From positions 64,001 to 128,000 of IMG/VR virus record IMGVR_UViG_3300035670_000022: a stretch of DNA of 64,000 nt; one strand, given 5' to 3'. A model generated the notes under the pieces. It saw only the letters and a program-made list of their open reading frames with translations, was not told where the DNA came from and ran no database searches. Below, one piece after another: positions 4,322-47,747 of the stretch. Origin of the DNA: a virus. A program made the translations under genes and the position numbers. How positions within the stretch are numbered: the stretch's first letter is position 1; each line of letters starts with the position of its first letter.

Positions 4322-4431
4322 GGTTTAGTAGTACTCCAAAATTCAGGATTTTTTCTTTAGAGAGGTACCTATTTGTTAAAACAAGTCTCTCAAACTCTTT
4401 TTAGCTTCCATTTCCTCAAGTACTATTCTGT

Positions 4432-4692
4432 CTATTTACAGATAGTATCTGGACCGGAGATGAGTAGTTTATTAAACAGACCGGGTTTGGTGCATTCCAT
4501 TTTGAGACCGTCGACGTTGGTTGACGTAGTGCGTGGAGTAAGGTCTAGGGAGACATTACGTAGCGAAGCACCTCCGCGTTGATAACGCAGAGACTCTTCT
4601 AAGGAGTCTGGAGTAGCAAAAGACATCAGGGTATGTAACCCTGCGATGAGGTTGATAGCAATAACGACGGGAGTCAGAGAAGAGCCTTTCAT
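4432..4692 (-). CDS. Hypothetical protein with N-terminal hydrophobic segment
   Basis: ORF starts 25 nt downstream of the phage promoter motif at 4717-4730. Confidence 0.6.
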   Translation of the reverse strand: MKGSSLTPVVIAINLIAGLHTLMSFATPDSLEESLRYQRGGASLRNVSLDLTPRTTSTNVDGLKMECTKPGLFNKLLISGPDTICK

Positions 4693-17400: not shown

Positions 17401-20400
17401 CAATCGGACCCATAGGCATAGGCGCACGGTTACCGCACGTAATTACACCTTCGGCTACAGACTGGCGGTCTAGAGGAATACCGCTACGTAGACACTCTTG
17501 ATATGGAGAGGAGACGACGTTGGTTTCTAGAATCCAGACTTCTCCTACAGGAATAGCAGGGTGACCGATACGCTTCGCACCGACTGCTTTATCGCCAGAG
17601 AAATACTTGCGGGAGTTCTTAGATGTAGCTAGAGAGTTAAGCACACCGCCGACCTGGTTAAGGGCGATCTGTTGCTTTTCGCTACCACCATTGATACACG
17701 GGATAAGTATTTCGAAGAAGAACATGGAGACGAAGTCCAAGTTATCATCGCTCTTGCGAGTCAGCTTAGAAAAAGCCAGCATGGCAGGGAGCCACATGGA
17801 CACTTTACCTTCTCCGGTTTCAAAGACGAAGACCATATCCTGAGTTGCTTCGGCAACCAGGCGGAAGAGGTTGTCTTGATGCGGATCAATCTGTCCAGGC
17901 TCAATACCGACTTTGCGTAGACGCTCATCCATAAGATCCTGACACTCGTTGCTGGTGTCATCTCCACCAAAGCAGATGCCTTCTTCATCAACGATGATGG
18001 ACACTACTTTGAGATTAGGATTAATGGTATTCCCAGCATTGAACGCGGCTAGCGCTTTAGCACGGTACAGCGCTTCTTTACCGCAGGACACCATACGACG
18101 CTGCTCAGCCAATACATCTTCGTCGTCCCCAGCTACAATGCTCAAGGACATGATATAAGGCAACAACTGAACGGAGGTCGTTACGGCTTCTGCTACCGTA
18201 GAAGACTCGAATAGCTCTACGTTGTAGAGTTGAGCTTCAGGTACGGAGAGGTACATTACGCCACGTTGTGCGACTTCTACCACTTTTCCGTCTTTAAGAA
18301 CAAAGGCGAGAATGTTGCTTTCCCACTCAATTTCTTTCTGCTCAGAGACTACGTAGAGGTTATCTCCTAAGTTGGCTAATTCAGGTAGGTACTCTAAATA
18401 GTTCTCTACGTGATACCACGCTGCCTTCCGTGCTTTTTCGTTCTCTTCGGTGTCAGGAAGTAATCCGGCGGCTACTTTCTCTTGGTAGAGGTCATACATA
18501 ACACGACCCATACCTTCAGCCTGTATCCAGTGAAGCCAGCGGGCTTGACCGAAGATGCTGTCGAAGTACTTATACATCTCATCATAGATACCAGCAGCAA
18601 CAGCAGCGGGCTCGATGATAAGCACGGGTTTGCCGTCGACCAGATTCTCGTGTCCTACCAACTGACGGTTGATGTCAGAGATATATTCACGAAGGGTCTT
18701 AACCACGTCTGTTTCTACTTCGTTGTAGAACGCAGTGTTGGCAATTATGAAGCACATCGCATAGCCCAAGTCGAGCTTAAGGCTATCTTGCAGGTGTAGT
18801 CCGTGTACAGTGATCTCGTCCGAGTTAAGGTCAGAGTTTAGATCATTGAACAAGATAGCAGGCGTAGCCGTAAAGAACTGCGACTTGTTAACACTACGAG
18901 ACTTCATATCAAACTCGCGGCGTTTGATGAAGTACTCGATGCTGAGATACTCAGTGCTGTTATCCATACCGACAACAACGCGCCAGCGGAAGTAGGTTAA
19001 CTGACCCTCTACACGGTGTTGATGGTAGATGGGAATCGTTCCGTGTACGCCGAAGAGGATCTCTTTACCTGTTCCGTTAACGAGCACCTCATCTTGCGGA
19101 GTGACATACATCCAGCCGTCTTCGCTCTCTACACTGTCCCAGGTGTTTTCGATCACACCGGTAACATTAGTTTGAGTAAAGTCGAACGGAGAACCGTCTA
19201 CTATATCAAACGTGTTACGGACAATTAGAATGCGTTGATCCGGGTTTGCTTCCGGTTTGTCTTTCTGTTCACCCAAGAACGCGGACATACCAGGCAGGTT
19301 AACGTGGCTCGGCGCATAGGCAGTCTTATCTAACCAGCCGTAGGTGGCATACTTCTGGTCGATAAGTTTAGCCGCAGAAGGCTGCTCGTCTTTGACGCTC
19401 TCAGCTTGAGCCATCCACAAAGACACCCGCTTCAGGAGTTTCTTCGCCTTCAACGAGTTGACGATTACTTTTCCTGCTTCGATTTCGCAGCCAAAGTTGC
19501 TGACGATCTTAGCGAACAGGTTCGGTGCATGCTTGCTGACCAAGTCTAGATTGACGTGACCCAAGGCACCAGCAACAAACTGTCCTTTGGTGTGGTGGAA
19601 GTCTAACCCATACTGCTCATGGGCCATTTCCATCACAATGTCCATCACTTCAGCAATTTCGATAGAGTCATCAAAGACAGCTGCAGTTTCGATCATTTGA
19701 AACTCTTCGTCTATGTCTGCCTCTACACCGCTGTAGCGTTCAGGTAGGACTTTAGCAGCCTTACCCTCTAGAGCAACCCACTTCCCATTACTGTTCAGCG
19801 GTGTGCGCTCTTTGAACATCACGGTGGAGAAGGTGTTGATGAGCAAGTGGTGTGCAGCACCGTTTTGGTCTAACACTCGGTCCGTAGTCATCTTAAAGAT
19901 GTTGCCCATCTTTTGCAGACATGACTTCACATTCTCTAATGTGGTAGAGAAAATGCCGGCGCTGCCAGACCAGTTAGAGAGGATAGGCAAGTACACGAGC
20001 CAGATGAAGTACATAAACATACTCAGGCTGGTGACTAACTTGATTTCTACCTCGTAGGGGCTGCCCTTAGGATCGGCTTTCTTCTCTTCTTTTGTCTTTT
20101 TACGTCCGTTGACAACAAGACAGCTATTGAAAGCACGACCACGCCAGTCATAGACAGTACCGTCGTCATCGAAGTAGAAAGCAGCAGCGCCGTCTATCTT
20201 AAGCGCTTTCATGCCATCTATCTCTACGAAGTCCAAGACTCCTTTGATATCGACAGCCTTACGGTTACGGCTCCGCTTTGTCTTCTTACCAGCGACTTCC
20301 ATCATGTCTTGAATGATGGTGATAACACCTTCAATCTCAGACAGTTGCCAGTCGTAGTCTAAGATTGGCATGTCGATGGTTGAGCAGGCATACTTGTCCC

Positions 20401-23400
20401 GCTCAGAGCAGAACCCACGTAAGTAGTAGGCTACTGCGTAAGCAGCTTTTTGAGCAGCACTACATTTCGTAGGGGGCTCTTGTCCCCGGAACAGCTCTTC
20501 AAAGACTGCCGTTTCGTTCAGCATCATGTCGTTTACGACTTCTTCTACTGTATAGAAGTCCTCGCTACGATTTCCGCTGGTCGGGTGATTTAACGCCTCG
20601 TACAGACTTTGTAGCTCTTCAGCGTAACCAGCTAGAACTTTGGGTTCTGCTTTAGCCGCAGGAGGTGTCGGAGGAGTAGAAGTGACAGGAGGAGTAGCGG
20701 GCGGAGCAGCTATTTTAGAAGGAGTAGAAGTAGCTACTTTAGAAGGAGTAGACTTTGTCACTTCCGCTTTAGACTTCACGCGACGACGACCACTCTTAGG
20801 TAGAGAAGTAGTAGTCTTAGCAGAGCGCTCTAAGAACGTGAAGTAGTTGTTATCGCTCCGGGGAGTTTCGAAGTCGATTAACTCTTCTACTACATCGCAC
20901 GGAACGAAGTAGGCTTCAATCCGGTCGCAGTACGGACGGTATTGTCCTTGACTGAGAACACCGTTCTCGTCTGGACGACGATTATCCGTCAGAATATCTA
21001 CTCGTCCGACGAGAAGCAAATAGTATTGCTCCACTTCTAACCCAGGGATGCCTCCATGTTCGCTCTGCAGGTTATCTAACGAGTTGTGGACAACGATCGT
21101 TTGCCCATGTTTTTCTAGAGCGGAAACAAACCGTGTATTTCCTGTGTACACGGCTTTACGGATGATGTTCCGAACGGAAGAAGCGGTAGCGCCTGCTTCC
21201 GCACGACCTGCGACTTTGTCTTTAAGGTCGTGCTCGTTATTAACCAACGACTCGAAGTTCATATGGTGCGACACCTTGTCGTTAAACACCACATTTTCGA
21301 TGTTGGTGTAGGCAGCATCGCGGAACTGCCAACTTGCCTTCTTGGCGTTGGCGATCGGAGCATACAAACGAGCCGGGGTCGCTCCGATAGTAGAAGCAGT
21401 CCAACCTTCTTTAGCTTCTTGTTTGTAGTCGAAGCCTAAGAAGTTGCTGATGGGCAGCACCCGATGTTTGCTGTCGTCCGCCGCAGCATATAACTCGGCA
21501 TAGTGCGGTTTTGCTTTCGGCACAGGGTTAAAGTGTGCGTTAGCGTTACACCGCTGCTCTCCGTAGCGACAGAGGACTACATAGAGAGGATCGCTCTCTT
21601 GAATGGGAGCTGCGTCTACGTGCATTAATGTGAACGCAGGGATGCAACCCATCTCTTCAGGAGACTTAGTAAAGTGCATAGGAGCACCTACTTTTATCTC
21701 CATGTTTTTGTTTGCGCTATTACTGGTGCGACGCTTCATTGTTTGCTCCTTATTAATGGTAGCCAGTCCTATTTCTAGGGGTGTTACGCCTAGTTCGCTG
21801 ACAATGTCAGACCATTTAGATCCGTTTGTCAGCAAGGACCGAATGTTGCTTGCTGTCTCAGCGTCTACCAAGTCAGCTGGGTCAAAATGACCAGCACGGT
21901 AGACCTCCAGCAAATAGCTGGCGACAGTATCATCCTTGGTCTCACTCTTCGCCTCCTTACGGTAGGTAGATGCCAAGTCTGCTAGCATGTCCTCTAGCTT
22001 TTCTTCTGTTTTCAAGACACGTGTCCAGATGTCAATCACGATCTTGTGACGATGACTTAGCTGATTTTGTTCAGCTTTTGGTTTTTCTGTCTTTTTACTC
22101 TTCTCTGTTTTTGCTACAGGCTGTTTGTTAGGCACCCCGTAGTTGAGAGCCACTTCTAGGGAAGTAACTCCCAATTCCGTCTCTAGGTCTTTATAGGCCA
22201 CTCCTTCTGCCTTCAGATCTTGAATCTGCTCGTGTATCTCTGTAGATACATAGGCAGAGCAGTCTACCAACCCAGCGTCGTATGCTTTCTTTAGATACCC
22301 GACGATGGTTGAGTATGCCGCCTCACTTTTGTTAATTGCTCGGTAGCGTCGGACTAAGGAGTCCAACTTCTGCTGCAGATCGACGTTTTTAGCGTCTATC
22401 TTCTCCCACAGTTCAGCTATCTGCTGAATTGATGATGGAGTTTTCTGTGCGGACGTGGTCGGAGTTCCTCGTTTTTTGGCATACTTACTCATTGGACGCG
22501 GAGTTTTGCTCCGCTTGAAGACCATAGTTGCCTCCGGTACACCCTCTGCCGATGCAGCACATCGTGCCTCGGCGAGAGCCATAAACTCGGCCGGTACGGC
22601 CACGGGTTCAGATTCTGAACCGTTCAGAATCTCAGCCATGATGGCTGTCCCTGCGGCGTAGGCGGCTTCTGCCTTTTGTTCTTCCGTCTTATTGGCTAGG
22701 TAGACGGTTTTGTCTACCTTTTTGATGTTGCCAATCATCTTCCGACCTTCCGCCGCCCGGCGACGGTTTTGGATAGCGAGAGGCAACTCCGCCTCCTCTT
22801 GGGCGCGAAGGGCCCGTTGGCGACGGACTACAGAAGCCGGGATGGGGGCCTCGGTGCCGTTCGCCAACCAAATGGCGTTGTTACCTGCACGGAGGGCAGC
22901 GGACTTAGCGGCTTTGGTGATGACCGCATACTTAGCCGCCCGCTCGGATGCAATGTAAGCAGCCAGGAGTTTAGCCTCCGCCCGACGTTGGGCTTTGGCT
23001 AGTTGCTTCTCATACCCGGACTTAGTCTGGGGTTTGAGGTTACGGCGTTGTACCGCTTTGTTGCGACGTTGACGTTTAACCCGCTGGGTGCGGGCAATTG
23101 ATTGATTCACAGTCATTGATTTACGGACACGACGACGTGCCCGGGTAGAGGTGGTACCAACAGTGGTAGCGATGTCGGCAATGACATCAGCTACGGCGAC
23201 CATTACGGTCACGTTGGCATAGGCAAAAGTGCCCACACCGCCTGCACGTTTTTGTGCAGTGCCTTTGCGGGGGGCAGTGAGACGGAGAACCGCGTCCAAG
23301 GTGAATGCGGCACGGTTAGCCGTGCGGCGCTCAGTGTAGTGAGCAGAGATGACATCAGAGATGTCATTGGCTACGGCACCAGCGAATGCCATAGTAGCAG

Positions 23401-24001
23401 CGGTAGTGAGGGTAGCAGGGGCAAAGCGTACAACTTTGTGCGCAGTGTAGACACGGGGAGCACCCGTGGGGGTGCTGACGGTGTGGGTAGGGGCAACCCA
23501 GGAGGGTGCCGGAGTGGTGAATACACCTTTGAATCCGGGGGCAGCTTGCTTAGGAGCAGCTTTGGGAGCCCACACTACACGAGTGTTCCAAGCTGCTGCT
23601 TGGGCTGCCATAGGGTCAGCAACACCCCATCCTTTGATCTCCGCCATGCGGAGGTCAATATCACCAGCAGCGGTGATAGCGTCAGCGGTAGCTACAGCGG
23701 CAGCTACAGAAGAGGAAGCAGGAGCCTTGTAGCCAGTCCAGGTGCGGACTACATCCACCTTCTTGCCTTTCTTCTGCACGTGTACGTGCACTTTCCCGTA
23801 GTAGGAAAGGAACTCTTGGCGGGGTAGGCGGGCACCTACCGCAGAGTTCTTAATTACAGCGCCGGCGTTCCAGCGTTGGCTGGAACGGCTCCAGCTGTTA
23901 GTGTGTACGGTGCGCGGGGAGACCTCACGGACAGCTTGCTGAATCGAGCGAGCGAAGAAAGAGATAACGGAAACGGAAACGGACATTTTGAAGTTAGACA
24001 T
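11453..24001 (-). CDS. 4182-aa polyprotein: putative single-chain double-psi-barrel RNA polymerase fused to SLOG, NADAR, AlkB-type 2OG-Fe(II) dioxygenase, DUF4326 and Pif1-like helicase domains
   Basis: KSRSVNK (aa ~1700), NRAP (aa 2191), GGDDDGD (aa 2265); SGSRSI/GDAAGVD (SLOG); FSNF/WEQVKVDVM/DTFWG/GKNMQG (NADAR); LHVD...HG...RYNVTVR (AlkB); YIGRP/CFCAPLPCHGD (DUF4326); GVGGGGKS/DEVSM/GDPMQ/KSQG (SF1B helicase). Confidence 0.75.
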   Translation of the reverse strand: MSNFKMSVSVSVISFFARSIQQAVREVSPRTVHTNSWSRSSQRWNAGAVIKNSAVGARLPRQEFLSYYGKVHVHVQKKGKKVDVVRTWTGYKAPASSSVAAAVATADAITAAGDIDLRMAEIKGWGVADPMAAQAAAWNTRVVWAPKAAPKQAAPGFKGVFTTPAPSWVAPTHTVSTPTGAPRVYTAHKVVRFAPATLTTAATMAFAGAVANDISDVISAHYTERRTANRAAFTLDAVLRLTAPRKGTAQKRAGGVGTFAYANVTVMVAVADVIADIATTVGTTSTRARRRVRKSMTVNQSIARTQRVKRQRRNKAVQRRNLKPQTKSGYEKQLAKAQRRAEAKLLAAYIASERAAKYAVITKAAKSAALRAGNNAIWLANGTEAPIPASVVRRQRALRAQEEAELPLAIQNRRRAAEGRKMIGNIKKVDKTVYLANKTEEQKAEAAYAAGTAIMAEILNGSESEPVAVPAEFMALAEARCAASAEGVPEATMVFKRSKTPRPMSKYAKKRGTPTTSAQKTPSSIQQIAELWEKIDAKNVDLQQKLDSLVRRYRAINKSEAAYSTIVGYLKKAYDAGLVDCSAYVSTEIHEQIQDLKAEGVAYKDLETELGVTSLEVALNYGVPNKQPVAKTEKSKKTEKPKAEQNQLSHRHKIVIDIWTRVLKTEEKLEDMLADLASTYRKEAKSETKDDTVASYLLEVYRAGHFDPADLVDAETASNIRSLLTNGSKWSDIVSELGVTPLEIGLATINKEQTMKRRTSNSANKNMEIKVGAPMHFTKSPEEMGCIPAFTLMHVDAAPIQESDPLYVVLCRYGEQRCNANAHFNPVPKAKPHYAELYAAADDSKHRVLPISNFLGFDYKQEAKEGWTASTIGATPARLYAPIANAKKASWQFRDAAYTNIENVVFNDKVSHHMNFESLVNNEHDLKDKVAGRAEAGATASSVRNIIRKAVYTGNTRFVSALEKHGQTIVVHNSLDNLQSEHGGIPGLEVEQYYLLLVGRVDILTDNRRPDENGVLSQGQYRPYCDRIEAYFVPCDVVEELIDFETPRSDNNYFTFLERSAKTTTSLPKSGRRRVKSKAEVTKSTPSKVATSTPSKIAAPPATPPVTSTPPTPPAAKAEPKVLAGYAEELQSLYEALNHPTSGNRSEDFYTVEEVVNDMMLNETAVFEELFRGQEPPTKCSAAQKAAYAVAYYLRGFCSERDKYACSTIDMPILDYDWQLSEIEGVITIIQDMMEVAGKKTKRSRNRKAVDIKGVLDFVEIDGMKALKIDGAAAFYFDDDGTVYDWRGRAFNSCLVVNGRKKTKEEKKADPKGSPYEVEIKLVTSLSMFMYFIWLVYLPILSNWSGSAGIFSTTLENVKSCLQKMGNIFKMTTDRVLDQNGAAHHLLINTFSTVMFKERTPLNSNGKWVALEGKAAKVLPERYSGVEADIDEEFQMIETAAVFDDSIEIAEVMDIVMEMAHEQYGLDFHHTKGQFVAGALGHVNLDLVSKHAPNLFAKIVSNFGCEIEAGKVIVNSLKAKKLLKRVSLWMAQAESVKDEQPSAAKLIDQKYATYGWLDKTAYAPSHVNLPGMSAFLGEQKDKPEANPDQRILIVRNTFDIVDGSPFDFTQTNVTGVIENTWDSVESEDGWMYVTPQDEVLVNGTGKEILFGVHGTIPIYHQHRVEGQLTYFRWRVVVGMDNSTEYLSIEYFIKRREFDMKSRSVNKSQFFTATPAILFNDLNSDLNSDEITVHGLHLQDSLKLDLGYAMCFIIANTAFYNEVETDVVKTLREYISDINRQLVGHENLVDGKPVLIIEPAAVAAGIYDEMYKYFDSIFGQARWLHWIQAEGMGRVMYDLYQEKVAAGLLPDTEENEKARKAAWYHVENYLEYLPELANLGDNLYVVSEQKEIEWESNILAFVLKDGKVVEVAQRGVMYLSVPEAQLYNVELFESSTVAEAVTTSVQLLPYIMSLSIVAGDDEDVLAEQRRMVSCGKEALYRAKALAAFNAGNTINPNLKVVSIIVDEEGICFGGDDTSNECQDLMDERLRKVGIEPGQIDPHQDNLFRLVAEATQDMVFVFETGEGKVSMWLPAMLAFSKLTRKSDDNLDFVSMFFFEILIPCINGGSEKQQIALNQVGGVLNSLATSKNSRKYFSGDKAVGAKRIGHPAIPVGEVWILETNVVSSPYQECLRSGIPLDRQSVAEGVITCGNRAPMPMGPIERVRLIEEVWEKVEVETETGKETVEVYLGQRRVPFADEVQDNTLLAYEISPVQFGVSAMSVNLDGGDDDGDNHFITHCKHLSLKHITTYEKVRELRSAAIGMDMFSPTCGDYAADHYTIKSYKDASVVINKLAEALPEKAMINSSDLVKYNFLAYSIQHVGVGVMYAAYMLGMLAVSIIGELDKLDLFGEDGVEGLSAFVPLELDKYRQTQINKLMLVLAEVYEIMLGGFSPGGVSLWERFLKPIMFGKSIYDGCSKQSVKIKDFANAEVTQELHGILSNWDDEFIRFDVAEAYDRLRSTRLDMPRTKTIDLMVLNLRECNVTDEVAVANCTVLETLLGEMRLERALEDKVEETLAELGANCELAEEVTIAMHLLQDYYVVKRGKETPTYGISYLLYTIFQGGRGNFYFGDTVIYQESIAWLNALKSHPTGAKVLQTNVPLMSLSQLDEVLGKEMYDYTQISTLEWSDADLNFFLKEIHSVEESKDNFFSVIHNFNDGITEEEEDDSDEDDSDGGVEPTDDEPNDDGDGGESVDSSDTEEDTSTEELEVNHTQVVISGSRSIKRLPEEALDVIDSYIDQGFNFNVGDAAGVDMLVQSYLFEQGVTNVRVWYSSRKGCRNNVGDFETYAVYGDFTARDEKMHRNCDESLVIWDGVSPGSKKNIKRVKNTTVINVAMLKAQQEVEAQQEHPADKDTWEGDCILFNSYTPTYKEFSNFLGAPCTYKGVEYATAEGAYQCAKVLNPSHALIKEFAAMNGKQAKAKGAKVRLRKDWEQVKVDVMYEVLLGKFSHEPARTQLLETEDIDLVHLSPWDTFWGVNKKRQGKNMQGVLLMKVRDALRTESDKEELTVYTEDGLYIQQSYCQDEGIYDELRAAIEETFEDGEKTRFTAKSYSYTCAGQQFWVWNKGKGRYLNTQPSGSPVVEMPNILKETAEKIVAQLDIFDGYEAQTCLINRYAGAQKLNLHVDKDEEVDAPIVSFSFGQSGIFQIDGEKYEVGDGDLIVFYGNKRYARHGYEGNEGGEGVRYNVTVRMVKPKSDSEPPTSSEGHCTMKVLNIKNGDSVFGEYIGRPGKGKKGSVLANKAVVGKHGTRKECYELYRVWLQEKVDANDSVVLNELARLYAEQKDLVCFCAPLPCHGDLIIEMLNWMVDTNHPALKPVDEAEVEAEVEAEVEADVDSSVSDVYSSLSYSDIKEALKEYRDAGHTVPKLNGKKEDLLAALIELDEAADEQPAVEVTTTPNQPEVIEPTSAAIKAEPMSTPDPGNQVAAMLLMILETVPDMPETLHTKITDLYKSIPVVLVETEKSTSTQDDSFDAAVPETEEDQSTGVYFDDDYEMDDEIPISNFVSLSSVKVVEDKPMTTEDASDVLTAPEESEDQIEDEDTSSDFEMYAPEDEPEDIPLSKAVSLKVETPTPVAEKQKSVEPKTVEVGSVKPVVNSKGKKIVPSLKKVRKHAQKKAKQEETKVQMEIEADRKRKPEALQAAIDAITNVNATIDEESYLPALETMTARQLDVVAEAINGSNIMLTGVGGGGKSYSVEVARHIFDLLKLPYVIVGSTGTSVMNVGGDGTINSMFGLKLGFEKTESKKCSEYEEYHLLKSDVKDSRFFKSAKNYLGKRPLMVIVDEVSMVDNRFLNIIEDAAIEEGINIQWLLVGDPMQFLPVKGSLFFEPVFIKGAKNNVSYGSFVKRRDFVMINLKHNIRADGDKAWVDCLNLLRMDRLQLTGVKGNLIKDRFDASVTTKAPEDAIHIYFNNIGVKRHNSRKTAEMIANGADNKSYRAHVTGKFGDWYLKKAYDGEKQEFVTIFNPIEEEMTFCVDMPVMIRKNIQNGGGALIAANGSTGVVTKLGKNSINVRLDTTKQVITLDYADFEGPKDKSGRPIGTFRQIPAHPCFAMTLMKSQGLTINRPGVLHMYYVSKGKVTAIPAQHKAALYVGPSRFPKADLVYFATDCEFNSELTSEQMWSMLVDSYHTSDIALDWMETQFS
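22613..22629. repeat. 17-bp palindrome, copy 3
   Basis: Exact sequence inside the 4182-aa gene; extends to 22610-22632. Confidence 0.85.
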
Positions 24002-24113
24002 AATAAATGCGCCCCTAATATGGCGCTTTAAGGTTTTTATTTAGACACTTCACTTTTGAGAGGCTGTGAGAACCTACAACGACTAATACGCCTCGTTGCT
24101 GGCAAGACAGCTT

Positions 24114-24347
24114 CTAGCCAAAGTACCGGGGGCTAGCCGTAGCTTTGCCCTCGGTGATGTTGGCAATGACGCTAAAAACAAAGTTGGGGGCCAGTTTAGC
24201 GGCCAAGGAGACCTCGGCCAAGATCGAGGCATAGGTATGCCCCGTAACTTGAGCGATTGCTCGCTCTACTGAGATGGCTACGCCGTAGGCGACGTAGAGT
24301 ACCGCCAAGACGGCGGTGTAGATGAACAGAATGTTGAGAATGTCCAT
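24114..24347 (-). CDS. Small membrane protein (paralog of 25256-25561)
   Basis: GGAG RBS before MDILNIL; TM helix; C-terminal RYF. Confidence 0.65.
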   Translation of the reverse strand: MDILNILFIYTAVLAVLYVAYGVAISVERAIAQVTGHTYASILAEVSLAAKLAPNFVFSVIANITEGKATASPRYFG

Positions 24348-24515
24348 AGTTGTTTCTCCAACTAGAGGTTTACATGTAGTTTTGAGTGGTTCTACAAACC
24401 AATCGGGACTAATAGCCCACCCGACTGGGCACAACAAAAGGGGACCCGCCTAAGCGAGACCCCTAGATAGACATAGCAAGCTATAATCTACTTATTCAAT
24501 TTAGAGGTAATAAGT

Positions 24516-25136
24516 ATGACTGATATAGCCCGCTTTGAGCAACCCCTTGACTTTGAAGTGCTTCAGCAAAGACTCCAAACAGAGGTTAAAGAGAAGAACG
24601 GAACATACTCTTGCACAATCCGTGGTGTTGCCCGTCTTCTCGGTATCAGTGCAGGCAGTCTTACAGATAACCGCGTGCTTGCTAATGGCTCTCCGCACGG
24701 ACTTCTGCAGAAGGTTAAACACTGTACGCTTGAAGAGTTGCCTTCTTCCTTGAAACCCATACAGGGCTTTGATTTCGCCGATCAGAAAGACGGCGCAAAG
24801 CGTACAGGGAGTCACTGCACTGACATGATGCTGCCTGAAATCGTAGTAAGTTGTATCATCAAATACTATGCCTATGATGCTCGTCTTAAAAGACCTCAGG
24901 CAGTGGTGTTGGATAATCTCTTTTCTGCTATGGGTATCCGTTCCTTCTTTGCTTCTTTGTTGAAGCAGGAGGAGTCGAAAGACGAACAGGTCGTGCATCC
25001 AGTAGCTGTAAAGACTACGCAACCCTGTGACTCCGATAACCGTGTAGCTGTGGTTAAAGAGGTCTTGGACGTACTCTCCAACTGCACCCCAGACTATAAA
25101 GAGAAAGCTCTCCTGACTCTGCTGGGTGTGATTTAA
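24516..25136 (+). CDS. Putative DNA-binding regulator (paralog of the N-terminal domain of 29460-30251)
   Basis: CTIRGVARLLG HTH-like segment; LPExVVSxxIKxYAYDAR; GAGG RBS; TATAAT upstream. Confidence 0.7.
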   Translation: MTDIARFEQPLDFEVLQQRLQTEVKEKNGTYSCTIRGVARLLGISAGSLTDNRVLANGSPHGLLQKVKHCTLEELPSSLKPIQGFDFADQKDGAKRTGSHCTDMMLPEIVVSCIIKYYAYDARLKRPQAVVLDNLFSAMGIRSFFASLLKQEESKDEQVVHPVAVKTTQPCDSDNRVAVVKEVLDVLSNCTPDYKEKALLTLLGVI

Positions 25137-25255
25137 AGAGTATTTGTTGCGGCTGTTACCTGGTTGGGTATCCAAGTCGGTCCAGAAGAACCCAGCCAAT
25201 ATGTTTAGCAGCTTCACCCACTGCATTGTGAGTACCTCGCGGTACAGGGGCAACA

Positions 25256-25561
25256 TTATTGAAAGTACCGCATGCTGCGTGCGGTAGGAGAAGGATTCAC
25301 CTTCTCCATCACATCCCACGCCCAGGTGGGGTTGCATACCCCCCAGACCCAGACGTGATTGATTCCGCCAGTGATGGCGGTGTATGCGCCTTTTAGGAGG
25401 GCAAGGGCCACTTCGTCTATGTGGTGCCCGGTGGACTCCCGCACGGAGCGGGCGACGCCGTAGCAAATAGCGTCGATGAAGTACAAAGCGATCAGCCCGA
25501 GGCAGACGCCCCAGGCTGTTAACAGAATCGTATCGAGAACAAACATCGTGAAATCAGACAT
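25256..25561 (-). CDS. Small membrane protein
   Basis: TM N-terminus; TGH and RYF motifs shared with 24114-24347; preceded by a hairpin cassette. Confidence 0.65.
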   Translation of the reverse strand: MSDFTMFVLDTILLTAWGVCLGLIALYFIDAICYGVARSVRESTGHHIDEVALALLKGAYTAITGGINHVWVWGVCNPTWAWDVMEKVNPSPTARSMRYFQ

Positions 25562-25809
25562 TTAATTAGAGGCCGGGGTAAAGAAGAGTCCGGATGTTCC
25601 TCGTAAAAAGGTGCCCCCTCTATATAGAGGGGGCACGGCTGTTATACCTAGGACTGAAGCAAGTCAGTCCTAGGGAACTCAGCCTACCTTTAAGAAGTGT
25701 TTGACCTGTTTCGAGAAACATTAAAGTTGATCACAGCCGTAGGTAAAGAATTGGTGGCTGTCCTCCTGTAAAAGGTGCCCCTATGCTTGTTAGGCACAGG
25801 GGCAATACT

Positions 25810-27183
25810 CTATATACGATTAAGCTCTACCATCGGTGGAGGTCCTGCGCGTCGGGACATCTCTGCGAGGACAACCTCGTGGCGGATTTGACGCTGCCAT
25901 GAGTATGAGTCGCAGAAGCGTTGGAAGTACACTAAACGATTGATGAGTGCACGGTCATCTAGTGTTGCGTACTGTTCCTCAACCTCGAGGCGGAACATCT
26001 CTTCCACCGTAAGGGCCTGTACTATCTCCTGAGGAGCTCGAGACTCGAAACCGCCTAGGGGAGCTTCATATGCCTCCTCGTCGAAGACCTCCCAGCCCCG
26101 GTGGGCGAGGGAGTTTGCTGTGGTGACAGGTGGTGTCTGCCATCCTTCTTTCCACTCTTCCAGCCGACCCATATCGGGAGTGTATTCTGGACAGACCTTT
26201 AGCCACTCATCCATGTGGTCTACCCACGTTTTGATGAGTTTGAGATTGTCCAGTACCCCTTGTGCAGAGGAAGGGGAGAGGAAGGCACGGATCTCCACCG
26301 TGTTTTTGTTCCCCTCATTCAAGGCCACATATCGTGACTCTGAATATTGGCGATACTCGCACCACTTATTGGGATACCGCCCACACAGGAGGCTGATATA
26401 GGGAGTTACAGACCCATCAAACAACCCTCGTAGAAACTCGAGTTGTTCTTGAGTCAAGCCCTTACGGCTCAAATGCACGTGCATCCCAACCCCGGAGTGG
26501 GCGTCGAGAGTGGTATTAGCCGAGAGCAGCTTATCGAAGCTGCTTGCCACCTCGGTAATACGACGAACCATATCGTCATAGGTATAGGGGAGAGTGACAT
26601 ACTCCCCGTCTACCGACGAATCAGCTTTAAAGATGCCCATCCCGAGCAAAGGATAGAGGTCCTGCAAAGAGTAGTTGGAGTGATTAAACTCCAGCTCCAC
26701 ACCGTACAACAACTCTTTCGAGTTGATTACCTCCTCCCGTTTGTGGGAGTGAGCAAGAGACAAGACGTCCTTGCTGTAATTCCACACTTTCTGCTCGGGC
26801 TGAGCAATGTCTCCATACCGTACAGCGGGGACATACTGCTGAGCGGAGGGAAGCAAAGATGCCACCTCCTCTATACAGACCTCGATGAGATCTGACAGAA
26901 TATGGTAGGCCTCCCCGTTTACGCCCATCTCAGGTAGACGTTGCGTGTCATACCCTCCGCATTCGACTCCATTCTCATTCACCTCCATATAGAAGGAGTT
27001 GGAGAATTCGTTATCCCCGAGGGAGATAACGATGGTTTGGGCAGCAGCGTTGGAGGTAGATACGAAAGACATAATTGATCCTGGCACTATTGCAGTTCCC
27101 GCATAGGTTAATAACCTGTCTTCTTTTCCACCGTGTATGGACAGGTAAACACGACAGACTTTGTTTGGAATCGCGTCTGCCAC
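25810..27183 (-). CDS. Putative amidoligase (COOH-NH2 ligase, Amidoligase_2-like)
   Basis: GVELEF, DSSV, GEYVT, GMHVHLS, RYVALN and TVEIRAF motifs. Confidence 0.8.
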   Translation of the reverse strand: MADAIPNKVCRVYLSIHGGKEDRLLTYAGTAIVPGSIMSFVSTSNAAAQTIVISLGDNEFSNSFYMEVNENGVECGGYDTQRLPEMGVNGEAYHILSDLIEVCIEEVASLLPSAQQYVPAVRYGDIAQPEQKVWNYSKDVLSLAHSHKREEVINSKELLYGVELEFNHSNYSLQDLYPLLGMGIFKADSSVDGEYVTLPYTYDDMVRRITEVASSFDKLLSANTTLDAHSGVGMHVHLSRKGLTQEQLEFLRGLFDGSVTPYISLLCGRYPNKWCEYRQYSESRYVALNEGNKNTVEIRAFLSPSSAQGVLDNLKLIKTWVDHMDEWLKVCPEYTPDMGRLEEWKEGWQTPPVTTANSLAHRGWEVFDEEAYEAPLGGFESRAPQEIVQALTVEEMFRLEVEEQYATLDDRALINRLVYFQRFCDSYSWQRQIRHEVVLAEMSRRAGPPPMVELNRI

Positions 27184-27414
27184 GATTACTTACGCCGGTT
27201 CAGATACAGCACCGGGAACTCTCCACTGATTTGACGTGTGTGTCGACACGACCTACTTAGATTTAGGTAGCTGAGCCATCTACCACCCTTTTACTCAGCC
27301 GGGCCTGGCCTATCCTCATACCCGTTGTTGGGTCGTAAAAAAAGCCCCTCTATATAGAGGGGCAGTCATATAGGTGCAGCTTATTTACCCTCCCCTGCAC
27401 TGGGAGACCAAGCA

Positions 27415-27537
27415 TTACTGCTTGGGTTGGAAGGCCTCTTTGGCCTTCTCTTCGAGTTGAGCTTCCTCCATAGCGGAGGGTGCGCGCCCCCCGCAGAAGA
27501 AGAAACCGAATAAAGCCAGAAGAATGAGCATTTCCAT
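27415..27537 (-). CDS. 40-aa membrane-anchored peptide (MEMLILLALFGFFFCGGRAPSAMEEAQLEEKAKEAFQPKQ)
   Basis: Located about 55 nt downstream of a hairpin cassette, like its neighbours. Confidence 0.5.
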   Translation of the reverse strand: MEMLILLALFGFFFCGGRAPSAMEEAQLEEKAKEAFQPKQ

Positions 27538-27640
27538 TTTCTAAAGCCGGTTGGTATAAAGAAGCAGCCTATGGCTGTGACCGGCATAAAAAAAGCCCCT
27601 ACACCTAGTGGTGTAGGGGCAAAGAGTGTACGAGTAGCTT

Positions 27641-27862
27641 CTATTCAGCTACCCGTACGAGGACTGCCAAGCAGTCCTCACGCTTGGGCCACCCGAAGGT
27701 GTGGGGGGTTGTGCATACCCACCCTTCTCCCAGACCGGGGAAAGAGGGGTCGCAGGTACCCCCCGTTTGCCCCCCGCAGGGGGCGTAGGCCCGGCCGATC
27801 GCCCGCCGGGCGATGGTGGTTGCGGGGGTGGTGGAAGCGGAGGTGTTGTTAGCGGTAGACAT
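27641..27862 (-). CDS. 73-aa Cys/Gly-rich small protein
   Basis: Follows a leader nearly identical to that of 25256-25561. Confidence 0.55.
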   Translation of the reverse strand: MSTANNTSASTTPATTIARRAIGRAYAPCGGQTGGTCDPSFPGLGEGWVCTTPHTFGWPKREDCLAVLVRVAE

Positions 27863-27958
27863 GGTAATAGAGGCCGGGGTAAAGAAGTATCCGGTTGTTC
27901 CTCATAAAAGGGGGCCCCTATACAGGGGGTTCCTGTATAGGGGGACGTGTTAGGTGGG

Positions 27959-28537
27959 CTACATTAGTAGCTTCTTAGCTATAGCCCACTTCTGGGCAGA
28001 TACCTGCCCTTCGAATGAGCGCAGTAGGAGCGCCCAATCGTGTTTTACCCGCTTTTCCCACATGTTAGGTGGGAGGTGGTGCCCCTCCTCCGCAAAGGAG
28101 AGGTCTATCAGTCGTGCCCCTTCGGGCCAGACCAATATGTTGTTCGCATGGCTATCGCCATGCGTCCAACCGTGGGCATGTAGCCCACTTAGGGCTGCAC
28201 AGGCGTGCAGTAAGAGCACGCCAAAGGTATACGGGGAGGTTCCCGTAGAGGTAGCAACCTCTAGCAAGGTGCGCCCCCGCACCTTCTCGAGCACCAGCCG
28301 TGTGCGGCTGGAGTCTGGGTGCATCTTTGGGATGATGCTTCCCTGAAGAGGGTGGAGTACTCCATATATGAGATACTCCTCTTGGAGTTCATCCTCTGCC
28401 CAGCTATCCCCGGGCTTAGCGTTTTTAACCACCCATCCCCGGGTGGTAGATTCGGTCACGAGACCGAATCGCCCCGACCCAATGAGGGGGGTAGTAGCGG
28501 TAGTAGCGGTAGTAGCGGTAGTAGCGGTAGTAGTCAT
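27959..28537 (-). CDS. Minimal Ser/Thr protein kinase (RIO/Bud32-like)
   Basis: IGSGRFGLV loop, VVK, HGDSHANN catalytic loop, IDLSFA; probable start MTTTATT. Confidence 0.85.
   Translation of the reverse strand: MTTTATTATTATTATTPLIGSGRFGLVTESTTRGWVVKNAKPGDSWAEDELQEEYLIYGVLHPLQGSIIPKMHPDSSRTRLVLEKVRGRTLLEVATSTGTSPYTFGVLLLHACAALSGLHAHGWTHGDSHANNILVWPEGARLIDLSFAEEGHHLPPNMWEKRVKHDWALLLRSFEGQVSAQKWAIAKKLLM
28490..28533. repeat. 9-bp tandem repeat GGTAGTAGC (encodes TTA repeats in the kinase N-terminus)
   Basis: About 5 copies visible. Confidence 0.9.
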
Positions 28538-28616
28538 TTGATATGCACTGTCACAGGGCATGGATTAGCTCGGCTGTGATGGCATAAAAAAGGCCCCCTA
28601 GAAGGGGGCTATATTT

Positions 28617-29018
28617 TTATTCAGAATAGGGTTTGATACTTGGCTTACTCTGTTCTTCGTAATAGAGCTCAGCCATTGCCTCGGCGAGGCGCTTGTTATA
28701 TGCGTCCTCGAGCCAAGTAGACATCTCTACGTAGAGGTAGTAGATGTCAGAATCCTTCCGGATTCTGTCTTCAGAAGGAAAGGTTCCTTCAATGTAGCGA
28801 TGAGCGAAATACGCCATAGCTTCTTTGGTCCGAAGCGTGTTATAGTCGTCGGCGTTTAAGTCCACAAGGGACTTCTTGCCCCAGACTATATAGGCGAGGC
28901 CATGGTCACCGCCATCATGGCGGTCATATCCGGTGCCTTTGTTGGCACCTATTTGTTGGGAGAAGTGTCCCAACATTTCGGACCAAACTAAACGGGCGAT
29001 GGATTTGAAGTTAAACAT
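28617..29018 (-). CDS. Hypothetical protein, first gene of the leftward cluster
   Basis: ORF with probable start MFNFKS; hairpin cassette upstream. Confidence 0.7.
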   Translation of the reverse strand: MFNFKSIARLVWSEMLGHFSQQIGANKGTGYDRHDGGDHGLAYIVWGKKSLVDLNADDYNTLRTKEAMAYFAHRYIEGTFPSEDRIRKDSDIYYLYVEMSTWLEDAYNKRLAEAMAELYYEEQSKPSIKPYSE

Positions 29019-29224
29019 TAGGAACTCCGGGGTGTGAAAGGTAATTAGCCCCATAAAAGGGGGCCCCTACACTGATTAGGTGTAGGGGCCAAAGAGAAGA
29101 TGAAGTCTTGCGGATTTATTGCAAAAACGGGTTCTGCATATGGGCAAGACTGTTATATGACCCTCTTAAAAATCGCGGCATATTTTCATTTCCTATACGC
29201 CCATTAGTACAAAATGTAGTAATT

Positions 29225-29347
29225 GACCAACCAATCGACCAGTGACCAACCAATCGACCAGTGACCAACCAACCAATCGACCAGTGACCAACCAACCAAC
29301 CAACCAATCGACCAACCAATCGACCAACCAATCGACCAGTAACCAAC
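29225..29347. repeat. Modular microsatellite-like array (GACC/AACC/AATC/AGT units)
   Basis: Repeated GACCAACCAATC and GACCAGT units at the divergence point. Confidence 0.9.
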
Positions 29348-29459
29348 TTAGCCAATTAACCAATACGTATACAGTCAAACAAAAAGCTCTTTCTAGGCGC
29401 CTAGAAAGAGCAGTAATCACCAAGCTATAATGACCGTGTAATTTATTCACCTTTGAAGT

Positions 29460-30251
29460 ATGACACAGTTGACTGTCCCGCAAACTTCTTTGTCTTATGA
29501 AGAGTTAAACGCTTTACTCCGCTTAGAGTTGAAAAAATCAGACAGTGGCTATCTATGTACGGTTAGGGGTCTAGCTCGATTATTAGGGCTTAGTGTTTCT
29601 ACTATCGTAGATTCTAGGAAACAGCAGAATGGTATACCAAGGGGTGTGCTCCGCCGTTTGTTTGAGTGTTCGCCTAGCATTTTGCCAGAATCGCTACAAC
29701 CTATATCAGGCTTTGATTACAGGAGTTCTGCGTTGTTAGGTAAGGCGAACACTCACACATATCTGTTACCTGAAGTTGTTGTTTCAGGTGTAATCAAGTT
29801 TTATGCGTATGATGCGCGTAAGCCAATTCAGCGAGCTAAGCAACTTGATTATATGCTGAGCGCTATAGGTATAAGAGCGTTGTTTGATAGAGTTATGTCT
29901 TCTGAGTCGTCTTCTTTTGCTGTAGCGGCATTAGAGGTGACTTCTCCTGCTACTGAGGATACGCCGTGTGACAAGTTACTTTATCTCATACAGAAGCTAG
30001 AGTCTTTAAGATTTAGGCGAGAAGAGATTGTTTCCATATTTCGTACGAATGGAGTCGTTCAGCAGGAGTCTGGAGGTAATAGTTCCTATCGTGGTGTAGT
30101 GCCACATAAGAAGAAGTGGCGGGCGCAAATTAATGTTAATGGTGCTACTAGAGTCATTGGTGGCTATGATACCGAAGAAGAGGCAGCTAGGGCATATGAT
30201 GCATATGCTAAGGTTTTGTACGGTTCTGCTGCAAAGTTGAATTTTTGTTGA
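29460..30251 (+). CDS. DNA-binding protein with C-terminal AP2 domain
   Basis: SYRGV...KWRAQI...GYDTEEEAARAYD...AKLNF is an AP2 signature; N-terminal domain paralogous to 24516-25136. Confidence 0.85.
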   Translation: MTQLTVPQTSLSYEELNALLRLELKKSDSGYLCTVRGLARLLGLSVSTIVDSRKQQNGIPRGVLRRLFECSPSILPESLQPISGFDYRSSALLGKANTHTYLLPEVVVSGVIKFYAYDARKPIQRAKQLDYMLSAIGIRALFDRVMSSESSSFAVAALEVTSPATEDTPCDKLLYLIQKLESLRFRREEIVSIFRTNGVVQQESGGNSSYRGVVPHKKKWRAQINVNGATRVIGGYDTEEEAARAYDAYAKVLYGSAAKLNFC

Positions 30252-30310: not shown

Positions 30311-30392
30311 CTTTGTTTTGCGGCTGTACTCTTCTCTGTTTTTGTTCTGTGCCGTTGTAAGCTAGGTGTAGTATTCTTTCTTTTTTCCGACT

Positions 30393-30827
30393 ATGGACGA
30401 ACAGTTATATAAGGGTTTATCGACTGTGCTTTGTTCTTTGCAGGTATATCGGATTAAGTTGTTAGGGTTTCACTGGAATTGTAGGGGGGACTCATTTTAC
30501 GCCACGCATTTGTTAATGGAGAGGGCGTATGAAGCGGTGGATGGATTCATTGACCGTTTAGCGGAGTGTCTTCGTAAGTTTGGAGTAGTTCCTGCGGCGT
30601 TATCTGTGTATGCGTCATGTAGTGTTATCAAGGATGAGTTGAGTGTGCCGTCTATTCCTAGCATGTTAGTTATGGCTTCGGAGGATGGGGCAGTTTTATT
30701 TGAGTTAGCGCAGAGTATTATCAGTGTTGCTTCGCAGTCTAAACAGGAGGGTGTTGTTAACTTATTAGGAGACTTATGTGAGACGTTAGATACAGTGGTA
30801 TATCTATTGAAGAGTGGGACGCTTTAG
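30393..30827 (+). CDS. dps: Dps/ferritin-like protein
   Basis: FHWNxRGxxFxxxH...D.LAE ferroxidase signature. Confidence 0.85.
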   Translation: MDEQLYKGLSTVLCSLQVYRIKLLGFHWNCRGDSFYATHLLMERAYEAVDGFIDRLAECLRKFGVVPAALSVYASCSVIKDELSVPSIPSMLVMASEDGAVLFELAQSIISVASQSKQEGVVNLLGDLCETLDTVVYLLKSGTL

Positions 30828-35093: not shown

Positions 35094-35630
35094 TTAAGCC
35101 TCGATGATTAGCTTGAAAGTTTGTTCAACGTCTTCTTGCACTTCTATAGGAGAGAAGTTCTCGTAATAGAGTGGAATCGCATTTATGTCTGATGGTAGAT
35201 AAGAAGCGTAACAACGACTCTTTATGCTTTCTATATCAACTACCGAGTGAATGATAAACACTCCTAACGAGCGAAATGCCGGTTCTGGTATCTGGTTGTG
35301 AGGCAGTTTTACTTCTAAGTAAAGTTTGCTTATTTGCTCTCGTCTTATATCAAGTATGGTCGGGTCATCCATCAAAAGAATATGTTTGCCGTCAATAACA
35401 ACAGTGTCTTGGGTAGCACTTGACTTTTGAATTGCTGCTTTTCTGATCGGTATAGGAAAATAGATAAATATCTCGTTTAAGTTAAAGGTAAAAAGATCCG
35501 GCGCGGGGGGAACTGCTTCTATGCTCCAGGGGCTGGTCTGTCCTAGTCCTAAGAGTAGCGGAAAGCAAGGGTCCAAAAATCTCTGGAGCCGTCTGTAATT
35601 AATTTCCTTAGGATAGCCTTTGGTTGTCAT
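35094..35630 (-). CDS. Putative baseplate wedge-like protein
   Basis: GLGQTSPW...PP, LYLEV, FRSLGVF pattern typical of phage baseplate proteins. Confidence 0.5.
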   Translation of the reverse strand: MTTKGYPKEINYRRLQRFLDPCFPLLLGLGQTSPWSIEAVPPAPDLFTFNLNEIFIYFPIPIRKAAIQKSSATQDTVVIDGKHILLMDDPTILDIRREQISKLYLEVKLPHNQIPEPAFRSLGVFIIHSVVDIESIKSRCYASYLPSDINAIPLYYENFSPIEVQEDVEQTFKLIIEA

Positions 35631-47599: not shown

Positions 47600-47747
47600 T
47601 TCAACCCTCTATTACGATTAGTTTTGTTTTTATCTCTAGTGCCCCGTGTAAGCTAGGGTGTAGATAGTACCTTATAAACCCAGACTAGCCGAGTTCTTTA
47701 TTGCTGTCCTTAAGGTCTGTCTCTACTTTAATTCTGACCTATCTAAT

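Follow-up and report, generated by a model that had tools for sequence, protein, structure and literature searches.

In the uncultured virus record IMGVR_UViG_3300035670_000022, a set of small minus-strand genes (24114-29017, the island) is punctuated by seven GC-rich hairpins, each followed by a run of T residues, a short linear sequence signal and a leader that reaches the next start codon; we call each such unit a module. Coordinates refer to the window, the 64,000-nucleotide (nt) stretch at positions 64,001 to 128,000 of the record, unless another contig is named. What purpose do the modules serve? On balance we favor the reading that they are composite cassettes uniting a terminator, a start signal and a structured leader, similar to the promoter-early stem-loop (PeSL) cassettes of T4-type phages but with a start signal that is not of the sigma70 type and that possibly serves a phage-encoded polymerase. 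Distant relatives keep the three-part signal; the modules therefore probably mark stops and restarts within an early class of genes whose RNA polymerase (RNAP) is non-standard, and are not hairpin promoters in the style of phage N4. Three layers would act in turn. The GC-rich hairpin and T-run would form an intrinsic terminator that ends the transcript of the upstream small gene or insulates the head of the island. A linear signal that overlaps this terminator and shares its T-tract would be the start signal for the next gene, its reader being a polymerase blind to sigma70 promoters, with the putative single-chain polymerases of the phage as the most plausible candidates. The new transcript would open with a stem-loop that probably controls translation or RNA stability. 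We infer termination, initiation, the position of the start site and the acting polymerase from sequence.

The original prediction listed eight related hairpins on the minus strand of the island, and all are found: seven canonical hairpins with T-runs between 25.6 and 29.1 kb, and an imperfect hairpin of reversed polarity (GGGG..CCCC) at 24440-24466 (GGGGTCTCGC/GCGGGTCCCC, then TTTTG). The latter lacks the ACA(A/G)CC core of the linear signal and would be a plain terminator behind gene 24501-25225. The sharing reported between pairs is also correct, one palindrome being common to hairpins 27344-27363 and 25611-25636 and the stem GCCCCTACAC..GTGTAGGGGC to hairpins 29062-29090 and 27595-27620. 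Under strict criteria (a perfect stem of at least 7 bp, at least five GC pairs, and T4 or longer within 5 nt), the island minus strand holds six hairpins, against a mean of 0.003 and a maximum of one in 300 dinucleotide shuffles; applied to the whole 155.9-kb genome, the same criteria yield 13 on the minus strand and three on the plus strand. The expression CCCC-N3-24-GGGG-N0-5-TTTT matches seven sites in the island and one elsewhere in the genome. Complete modules of hairpin, T-run and ACA(A/G)CC are confined to the island save for two isolated look-alikes, at window position 2865 (-) and genome position 15976 (+). The module hairpins have the anatomy of canonical terminators, with a C-rich 5' arm and a G-rich 3' arm, and RNA folding energies from -12.8 to -22.4 kcal/mol. 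A stop codon precedes six of the seven (in one case that of a doubtful 33-aa open reading frame, ORF), with the hairpin starting 5-51 nt past the stop, and the T-run begins 0-5 nt past the stem (3-5 nt in three modules). Next come 4-7 T and then ATG (four modules), ACG (two) or ACA (one). The predicted TTTTAYG and leader of about 45-60 nt thus describe most modules, with five leaders of 44-57 nt and one of 54 nt in module 6, but not the ACA case or the 271-nt leader of an amidoligase-like gene.

At the motif level the genome holds two classes with separate territories. Outside the island, about 30 copies of AACAGAGAAGAGT, mostly on the minus strand, stand upstream of genes with good Shine-Dalgarno (SD) sequences and often 0-6 nt past a terminator T-run. 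This class and the island core have AACAG in common and diverge after it, and they follow the same grammar of terminator, T-run and a few bases. The claim that the modules form a distinct conserved regulatory class, restricted to the island and separate from the AACAGAGAAGAGT class, is upheld. The motif AACAGAG is missing from every module, as had been stated, though a related core, (A)ACA(A/G)CC, is carried.

Seven syntenic loci, reached via homologues of the giant B protein and of the amidoligase-like protein and designated L001, L002 and L004-L008, show protein identities of about 40-56% (L003, a short contig duplicating part of L002, is not counted among them). Gene order is constant across the loci: giant gene A, baseplate genes, divergent small genes, island, giant gene B. 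The same type of module stands upstream of nearly every island gene in the eight genomes, this one and its relatives, and does not occur in the flanking structural genes of L002 and L006. Stem sequence is free to change across the relatives, with GCCCC..GGGGC belonging to this genome and its nearest relatives and stems such as GCCGTCC.. and AGCCCTGGCTATC.. to L004; the structure and the T-run are kept. Scans of IMG/VR and JGI metagenomes with the amidoligase-like protein, an alignment of the giant B N-terminus and exact leader patterns returned nothing, and no close DNA relatives were found among deposited phages.

The best hairpin was re-derived upstream of each T-run/core site with all mismatch types penalised equally. 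The resulting 38 distinct hairpins from seven genomes have stems of 5-16 bp and loops of 3-9 nt, with no conserved stem or loop base, and their 309 pairs include 13 G·T and one A·C mismatch and no others (a separate earlier count gave 12 against 1). Under a symmetric expectation this bias has a binomial p of about 0.001. A sense-strand G·T corresponds to a G·U pair in the transcript, whereas A·C is the wobble of the opposite strand, and the 13-to-1 ratio therefore argues for selection on pairing in the sense RNA. In several relatives, G·U pairs make up most of what holds the hairpins together. Combined with a G-rich 3' arm, a U-tract and placement after stop codons, the bias gives the signature of an intrinsic terminator. 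From the center of the loop to the conserved signal downstream the distance runs from 15 to 22 nt, a spread of about 7 nt.

That downstream signal is linear and in fixed register: GGGG, T4-7, A(T/C)(G/T), N4-7, (A)ACA(A/G)CC(G)(N)TAC. When 33 non-redundant modules from seven genomes are aligned on ACA, 25-31 of them have G at each position from -20 to -17 and 24-32 have T at each from -14 to -10; A stands at -1, and C is found at +4 in 27 modules and at +5 in 25. Register is kept both for the GGGG that closes the stem and for the T-run (-15 to -8), and positions -7 to -2 carry almost no information, their length being kept. Within this genome the distance from GGGG to the A past the T-run is a constant 8-9 nt despite T-runs of 4-7 nt. 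The core is kept both where it is paired (ACAGCC/GGCTGT) and where it lies in an internal loop, which fits recognition in DNA. Relative L006 has a T-run and core without an adjacent strong hairpin at 13134 and 13958, in the form of an identical 30-mer, and this 30-nt duplication flanks an inverted gene. The bare ACAGCC core is also present in the leader of giant gene B. A promoter scan of the island minus strand found no sigma70-like site. The T-run and core would fit a DNA signal read by a protein, with one T-tract serving both it and the terminator. Arrays of ACAGCCG(CG), of 3-5 repeats at a spacing of 12-16 nt, stand in long stretches between island genes in L005 (about 4380-4480) and L006 (about 13075-13125) and look like binding-site arrays for whatever reads the core motif. 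The ATG of TTTTATG was considered as a conserved start codon and ruled out: many modules have ACG, ACA, ATTG or ATA in its place, and the frame is not kept.

The short leaders fold into one stem or two stacked stems around a pyrimidine-rich loop of 12-17 nt (for example CTTCTTTACC, ACCTTTCACA and TTCTTCTTTTCC), pairing bases just past the T-run with bases that precede the start codon by about 10-15 nt. The outer stem is found in at least eight versions, all complementary: GAGG/CCTC, GCGG/CCGC, CCCTAG/CTAGGG, CCTCAG/CTGAGG, CCCAG/CTGGG, CCTAG/CTAGG, GACTT/AAGTC and (A)GGGG/CCCC(T). Among six well-aligned leaders, paired cells amount to 86.7%, against 55% when slid by one column, and the covariation score is 0.247, against 0.115 in shuffles, none of 500 reaching the observed value. 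A wobble-pair test on the leader stems was uninformative, the stems being short and perfect. The 5' arm begins 2-3 nt past the T-run, and formation of the stem in mRNA would require a transcript start at or before this covarying arm. In L005, L006 and L007 the outer stem's 3' arm coincides with the SD sequence; it does not in this genome, where five island genes have none. It had been noted that the island genes mostly lack SD sequences; this is true of those five, but GGAG or AGGA lies 7-9 nt before the starts at 29017, 27072 and 24345.

Some leaders are more elaborate. The leader of the amidoligase-like gene, about 270 nt (27073-27336, minus strand), has blocks conserved in L005 (4520-4806) and L006 (11750-12029), among them GTGGAGAGTTCCC.GT.CTGTATCTGAAC.GGCGTAAGTA and GCGGGAACTGC..T.GTGCCAGGAT; it has no Rfam match and is a candidate cis-regulatory RNA. 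Leaders at L005 1180-1235 and L006 9820-9880 contain a minihelix resembling tRNA, with an acceptor-like stem, GCCGGTA/TACCGGC, and the T-arm GGGTTCGAGTCCC. The 68-nt leader of giant gene B (24043-24110, minus strand) contains TCACAGCC and the hairpin CAACGA/TCGTTG. It differs from L001 790-860 at only about four positions although the proteins are about 50% identical, and its stem shows a compensatory change, to TAACGA/TCGTTA in L001.

How are the seven modules laid out? All are on the minus strand. Module 1 (29018-29090) precedes the first island gene (28617-29017) and comprises the hairpin at 29062-29090 (GGCCCCTACAC/GTGTAGGGGCC, loop of 7), the T-run at 29055-29058, ATG, and a leader whose GGGG/CCCC stem encloses the loop CTAATTACCTTTCACA, a loop that recurs in the first cassette of L005 and at L007 1090; the gene starts at 29017, and a homologue search with 28617-29054 returned only the query itself. 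Module 2 (28538-28609), upstream of a small, protein-kinase-like gene (27959-28537), has its hairpin at 28593-28609, T-run at 28586-28591, ATG, core ACAGCC at 28572-28577 and leader stem TCACAG/CTGTGA; its type of hairpin and leader is found twice in L002. Module 3 (27863-27943, upstream of gene 27641-27862) has its hairpin at 27915-27943, T-run at 27906-27909, ATG, core ACAACC at 27893-27898, and a leader with outer stem GAGG/CCTC, inner stem CCGG/CCGG and loop ATACTTCTTTACC. Module 4 (27538-27620, upstream of gene 27415-27537) consists of the hairpin at 27595-27620, T-run at 27588-27594, ATG and core ACAGCC at 27573-27578, with leader stem GCCGGT/ACCGGC and inner stem CAGCC/GGCTG. Module 5 (27073-27363) stands before the amidoligase-like gene (25810-27072), with hairpin 27344-27363, T-run 27337-27343, ACG, core ACAACG at 27323-27328 and the long leader, which is kept in relatives.

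Module 6 (25722-25804) has its hairpin at 25776-25804 (one G·T pair), T-run at 25770-25773, ACA, core ACAGCC at 25756-25761 and leader stem ACAGCC/GGCTGT; its leader leads to the doubtful 33-aa ORF. Between two terminator hairpins lies a 165-nt unit (25611-25775, minus strand) that contains its own leader, a 21-bp imperfect hairpin (25637-25684) and this ORF, and that may be a small RNA. Module 7 (25562-25636) has its hairpin at 25611-25636, T-run at 25605-25609, ACG and core ACATCC at 25592-25597, and an orthologue at L001 1-76. It is a chimera of the module 5 hairpin palindrome and a leader of the module 3 type, placed upstream of an unrelated gene. The original prediction had called the leaders at 25567-25608 and 27868-27909 near-identical; they are about 82% identical over 25559-25608 and 27860-27909, with unrelated genes downstream. 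The gene behind module 7 (25256-25561) encodes a small membrane protein and is a paralogue of the small membrane protein gene at 24114-24345; its orthologue in L001 (29-409) has an extra helix-hairpin-helix domain.

The head of the island has features of its own. Conserved non-coding blocks lie upstream of module 1 at 29110-29186 on the minus strand, among them AAAATATGCCGCGATTTTTAAG (29165-29186) and ATAAATCCGC (29110-29119), both unique in the genome. Just upstream of the first hairpin, five genomes have ATA(A/C)ATCCG without variation, and here it occurs once in the whole genome; a palindromic block, AAAATATGCCGCGATTTT, is likewise unique here and is present in two copies in L004. Further upstream are nested tandem repeats (29221-29347) and a 26-nt perfect palindrome with a T-run (29386-29411, minus strand). 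The region 29110-29411 looks like an origin or operator region or a transcription entry point. A sigma54 or sigma70 reading of ATAAATCCG, a conserved block and putative entry point, was ruled out, there being no consensus. The hairpin and T-run of the first module are kept in this genome, L002, L004 and L006/L008 though the neighboring genes are divergently oriented. The observation that the hairpin at 29062 has no upstream gene to terminate is true of protein genes, but it is preceded on that strand by the hairpin and T-run at 29386-29411 and by the conserved non-coding blocks. As to its role, the first hairpin may be an insulator of the island, a terminator for a short non-coding RNA, or a part that the start signal requires. 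Contigs L004 (1-700) and L005 (1-420) end 0.4-0.7 kb upstream of the first island gene, either from an assembly break at repeats or at a real genome end beside the island.

Which polymerase would read the signal? The record, an IMG/VR contig classed as linear and about 88% complete, has the gene set of a myovirus and not of an N4-like podovirus (tail sheath, myovirus-type capsid, protease and portal). Its capsid protein shares 28% identity with its counterparts in Microcystis and Microcoleus myophages, which makes a cyanobacterial host plausible. Two giant minus-strand genes flank the island: gene A (35630-47599; 3989 aa), which adjoins baseplate-like genes, and gene B (11453-24001; 4182 aa), directly downstream of the island and co-oriented with it. 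Giant B contains NADAR, AlkB-like 2-oxoglutarate oxygenase, DUF4326 and Dda/PIF1 helicase domains. Three genomes keep the motif NRAP...D(D/Y/W)DGD in giant B, and giant A has NRQGAP...DYDGD, so that both giants have NR..P followed by DxDGD 55-75 residues on. Pfam, PHROGs and PDB sequence and profile searches of the giant proteins gave no polymerase match, including none to a T7/N4-type RNAP. AlphaFold2 models of giant B residues 1650-2450 (four sequences) reached a predicted local distance difference test score of 40, too poor for a fold search; a tblastn search of the same residues against phages returned nothing, and Atlas gave only a weak lead for giant A, to tape-measure proteins. An injected polymerase is a premise only. 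Outside the window, at G000:C1:47207-48154 (+), the phage encodes a full-length sigma70-family factor with recognizable regions 2-4; since it does, the host core polymerase would be redirected for, or used by, some class of phage genes.

Several observations count against the composite-cassette reading. If transcripts start at or next to the T-run, the T-tract would be the only conserved upstream element, an unusual arrangement in a promoter. The gap between GGGG and the A past the T-run is filled with C residues, weakening modules 1 and 3 as textbook terminators, and the core of module 1 is degenerate (AATTACC). The hairpin of that module has no co-directional protein gene upstream and would not be explained by a pure terminator. 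A polymerase fold could not be confirmed in either giant protein, and the phage's own sigma70-family factor suggests that host polymerase is in use for some genes. It is possible, though we think it rather unlikely, that punctuation takes place in RNA only: the island, perhaps with the giant gene, would be one long transcript from a single entry near ATAAATCCG, the polymerase would read through the hairpins, the U-rich linker would be cleaved, the hairpins would be 3' stabilisers, and ACA(A/G)CC with the leader stem-loop would be an RNA processing site, a translational operator or an SD-sequestering switch. Selection of the hairpins as RNA agrees with this, as do the covarying leader stems, which include bases right past the T-run, so that the region is transcribed, the SD sequences in the 3' arms of L005, L006 and L007, and the invariant, unique ATA(A/C)ATCCG ahead of the first hairpin. 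The virion RNAP of phage P23-45 is reported to terminate at an unusual motif and not at ordinary terminators (PMC10770324). Yet a U-tract right after each hairpin is a hallmark of termination for which a stabiliser has no need, conservation of the core in paired and unpaired form is odd for an RNA recognition site, the T-run and core are duplicated without a hairpin and ACAGCCG arrays lie in DNA outside leaders, and the AACAGAG class has the same placement after terminators in other operons. A variant of the composite-cassette reading, which we regard as doubtful, makes the modules terminate-and-restart stations, at which a polymerase that stays on, or tethered by, the entering DNA releases its mRNA at the hairpin and U-tract and re-initiates at the T-tract and ACA(A/G)CC without leaving the template. 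This would explain the locked register, why a hairpin is kept before the first gene, with ATAAATCCG as a unique conserved entry block ahead of it, and why modules are limited to genes before the second giant (putative polymerase) gene.

Cyanobacterial promoters often consist of a -10 element only, and the host is probably a cyanobacterium, judging by the capsid protein. Could the modules simply hold promoters for the host polymerase? The T-rich element would then be a -10-like box with the start at the A of (A)ACA, the host core would act with a host sigma or the phage's sigma70-family factor, and the hairpins would be ordinary terminators. The 6-7 nt from the end of TTTTAT to AACA equal the usual distance from -10 box to start, and the phage encodes a full-length protein of the family. 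We nonetheless judge this improbable: TTTTAT and TTTATG are without the critical A at -11 of TATAAT, a -35 element would fall inside the variable hairpin and cannot be conserved, the sigma70 scan of the island strand was empty, and a start at AACA would put the covarying 5' arm of the leader outside the RNA. The original prediction had instead proposed, by analogy with N4, hairpin promoters for an injected polymerase, perhaps doubling as terminators. Start signals and terminators are both very likely present; what lacks support is the hairpin itself as promoter. An extruded GC-rich DNA hairpin recognised by an injected polymerase would account for a hairpin ahead of every gene in at least four lineages, including the first gene, which has no protein gene upstream, and for the constant 8-9 nt from GGGG to A across T-runs of 4-7 nt. 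Against it stand the variable stems and loops, in which no base is conserved, and a loop center 15-22 nt from the signal, where N4 needs a fixed center at -11. The excess of G·T over A·C speaks against a hairpin in the template DNA strand, hairpins that rest largely on G·U pairs in several relatives would be unstable in DNA, and the linear signal occurs without any hairpin. The phage is also a myovirus, with no T7-like RNAP detected in the Pfam, PHROGs and PDB searches of its giant proteins. We consider the N4 model very improbable.

Neighboring features complete the picture. Island GC content is 50-59%, against 45% for the genome. The gene at 24501-25225 (minus strand) has a lower GC content (about 47%) and is a possible insertion without homologues in a PHROGs search; in the region 24501-25250 it has a truncated hairpin remnant upstream (GCCCCTGTACC..GGTAC, without a T-run) and an atypical terminator downstream, and it looks like an insertion into a former module. 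An HNH endonuclease gene (29460-30251, plus strand) lies between the island head and a minus-strand AACAGAGAAGAGT copy at 30340. It is missing from this position in L002 and is therefore likely a mobile insertion, which would be transcribed antisense from that copy. Upstream of the plus-strand genes at 30393 and 47748, at about 30320-30345 and 47640-47665 (+), stands GTAAGCTAGG(G)TGTAG, a candidate for a third promoter class. A tRNA scan found none, and Rfam gave four weak sub-threshold matches, none meaningful. An array of the CRISPR (clustered regularly interspaced short palindromic repeats) type was ruled out, without regular repeats or spacers, and so were mobile repeats of the REP (repetitive extragenic palindrome) or MITE (miniature inverted-repeat transposable element) type, without terminal repeats or target duplications and with all copies oriented with genes.

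Why does this signal matter? It defines, across a lineage of uncultured large myoviruses, probably cyanophages, with two proteins of about 4000 residues, a regulatory signal in three parts: a terminator kept as structure only, the T-tract/ACA(A/G)CC in fixed register, and a leader with covarying stems. Should the giant proteins prove to be polymerases, the modules of about 35 nt and the AACAGAGAAGAGT class would be templates on which to study how a new enzyme family selects promoters and terminators and whether it couples termination to re-initiation. A tempting N4 analogy is corrected as wrong. The N4 hairpin has a stem of 5-7 bp and a loop of 3 nt. N4 promoters form a template-strand DNA hairpin from inverted repeats around a GC-rich heptamer centered at -11, with bases -11, -10, -8 and +1 conserved; they are read by a T7-like enzyme and require gyrase and single-stranded DNA-binding protein (PMC4496689). 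The likeness lies in inverted repeats that precede early genes in a phage presumed to carry in a polymerase of its own, but none of N4's sequence or geometry features is found in the island modules. With ordinary intrinsic terminators the modules share the GC-rich stem, the G-rich 3' arm, the U-tract, the placement after stop codons and the tolerance of G·U pairs; they differ in being register-locked to a downstream motif, in occurring without an upstream protein gene, and in T-runs that begin 3-5 nt past the stem in three cases.

Two known systems come closest: the pre-early region of the Thermus siphovirus P23-45 (PMC10770324), with its cascade of two two-barrel phage RNAPs, one of them in the virion, and the PeSL cassettes of T4-type phages (PMC2839356, PMC4122927). 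PeSL promoters are consensus sigma70 promoters with an AT-rich UP region, read by the host RNAP (PMC2839356, PMC4122927). Here as there, a large myovirus appears to have a plastic early region in which small composite terminator/promoter motifs recur between the small ORFan genes; stem-loops rich in G/C tracts would act as terminators, and each cassette runs up to the start codon of the gene that follows. Chimeras of PeSL cassettes indicate that copies recombine, and module 7 and the 30-nt duplication of L006 may have a similar origin. Unlike PeSLs, the modules have as their conserved part T-tract-N-ACA(A/G)CC and carry an additional covarying leader stem-loop, and their lineage is unrelated to T4. 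In P23-45, the promoter of the virion RNAP is described as a strongly conserved AT-rich motif, and the terminators share a 26-nt motif (PMC10770324). Both phages have a gene cluster beside a second phage polymerase gene (putative here), two motif classes in separate parts of the genome, termination signals (predicted here) that recur in the pre-early cluster and are particular to its class, and a giant tail-associated protein proposed to carry the first polymerase. No sequence relation between the two systems was found, and polymerase activity is putative here. What sets the modules apart from PeSLs is a start signal without a sigma70 consensus, and from P23-45, terminators that are structure-only hairpins locked to the start signal.

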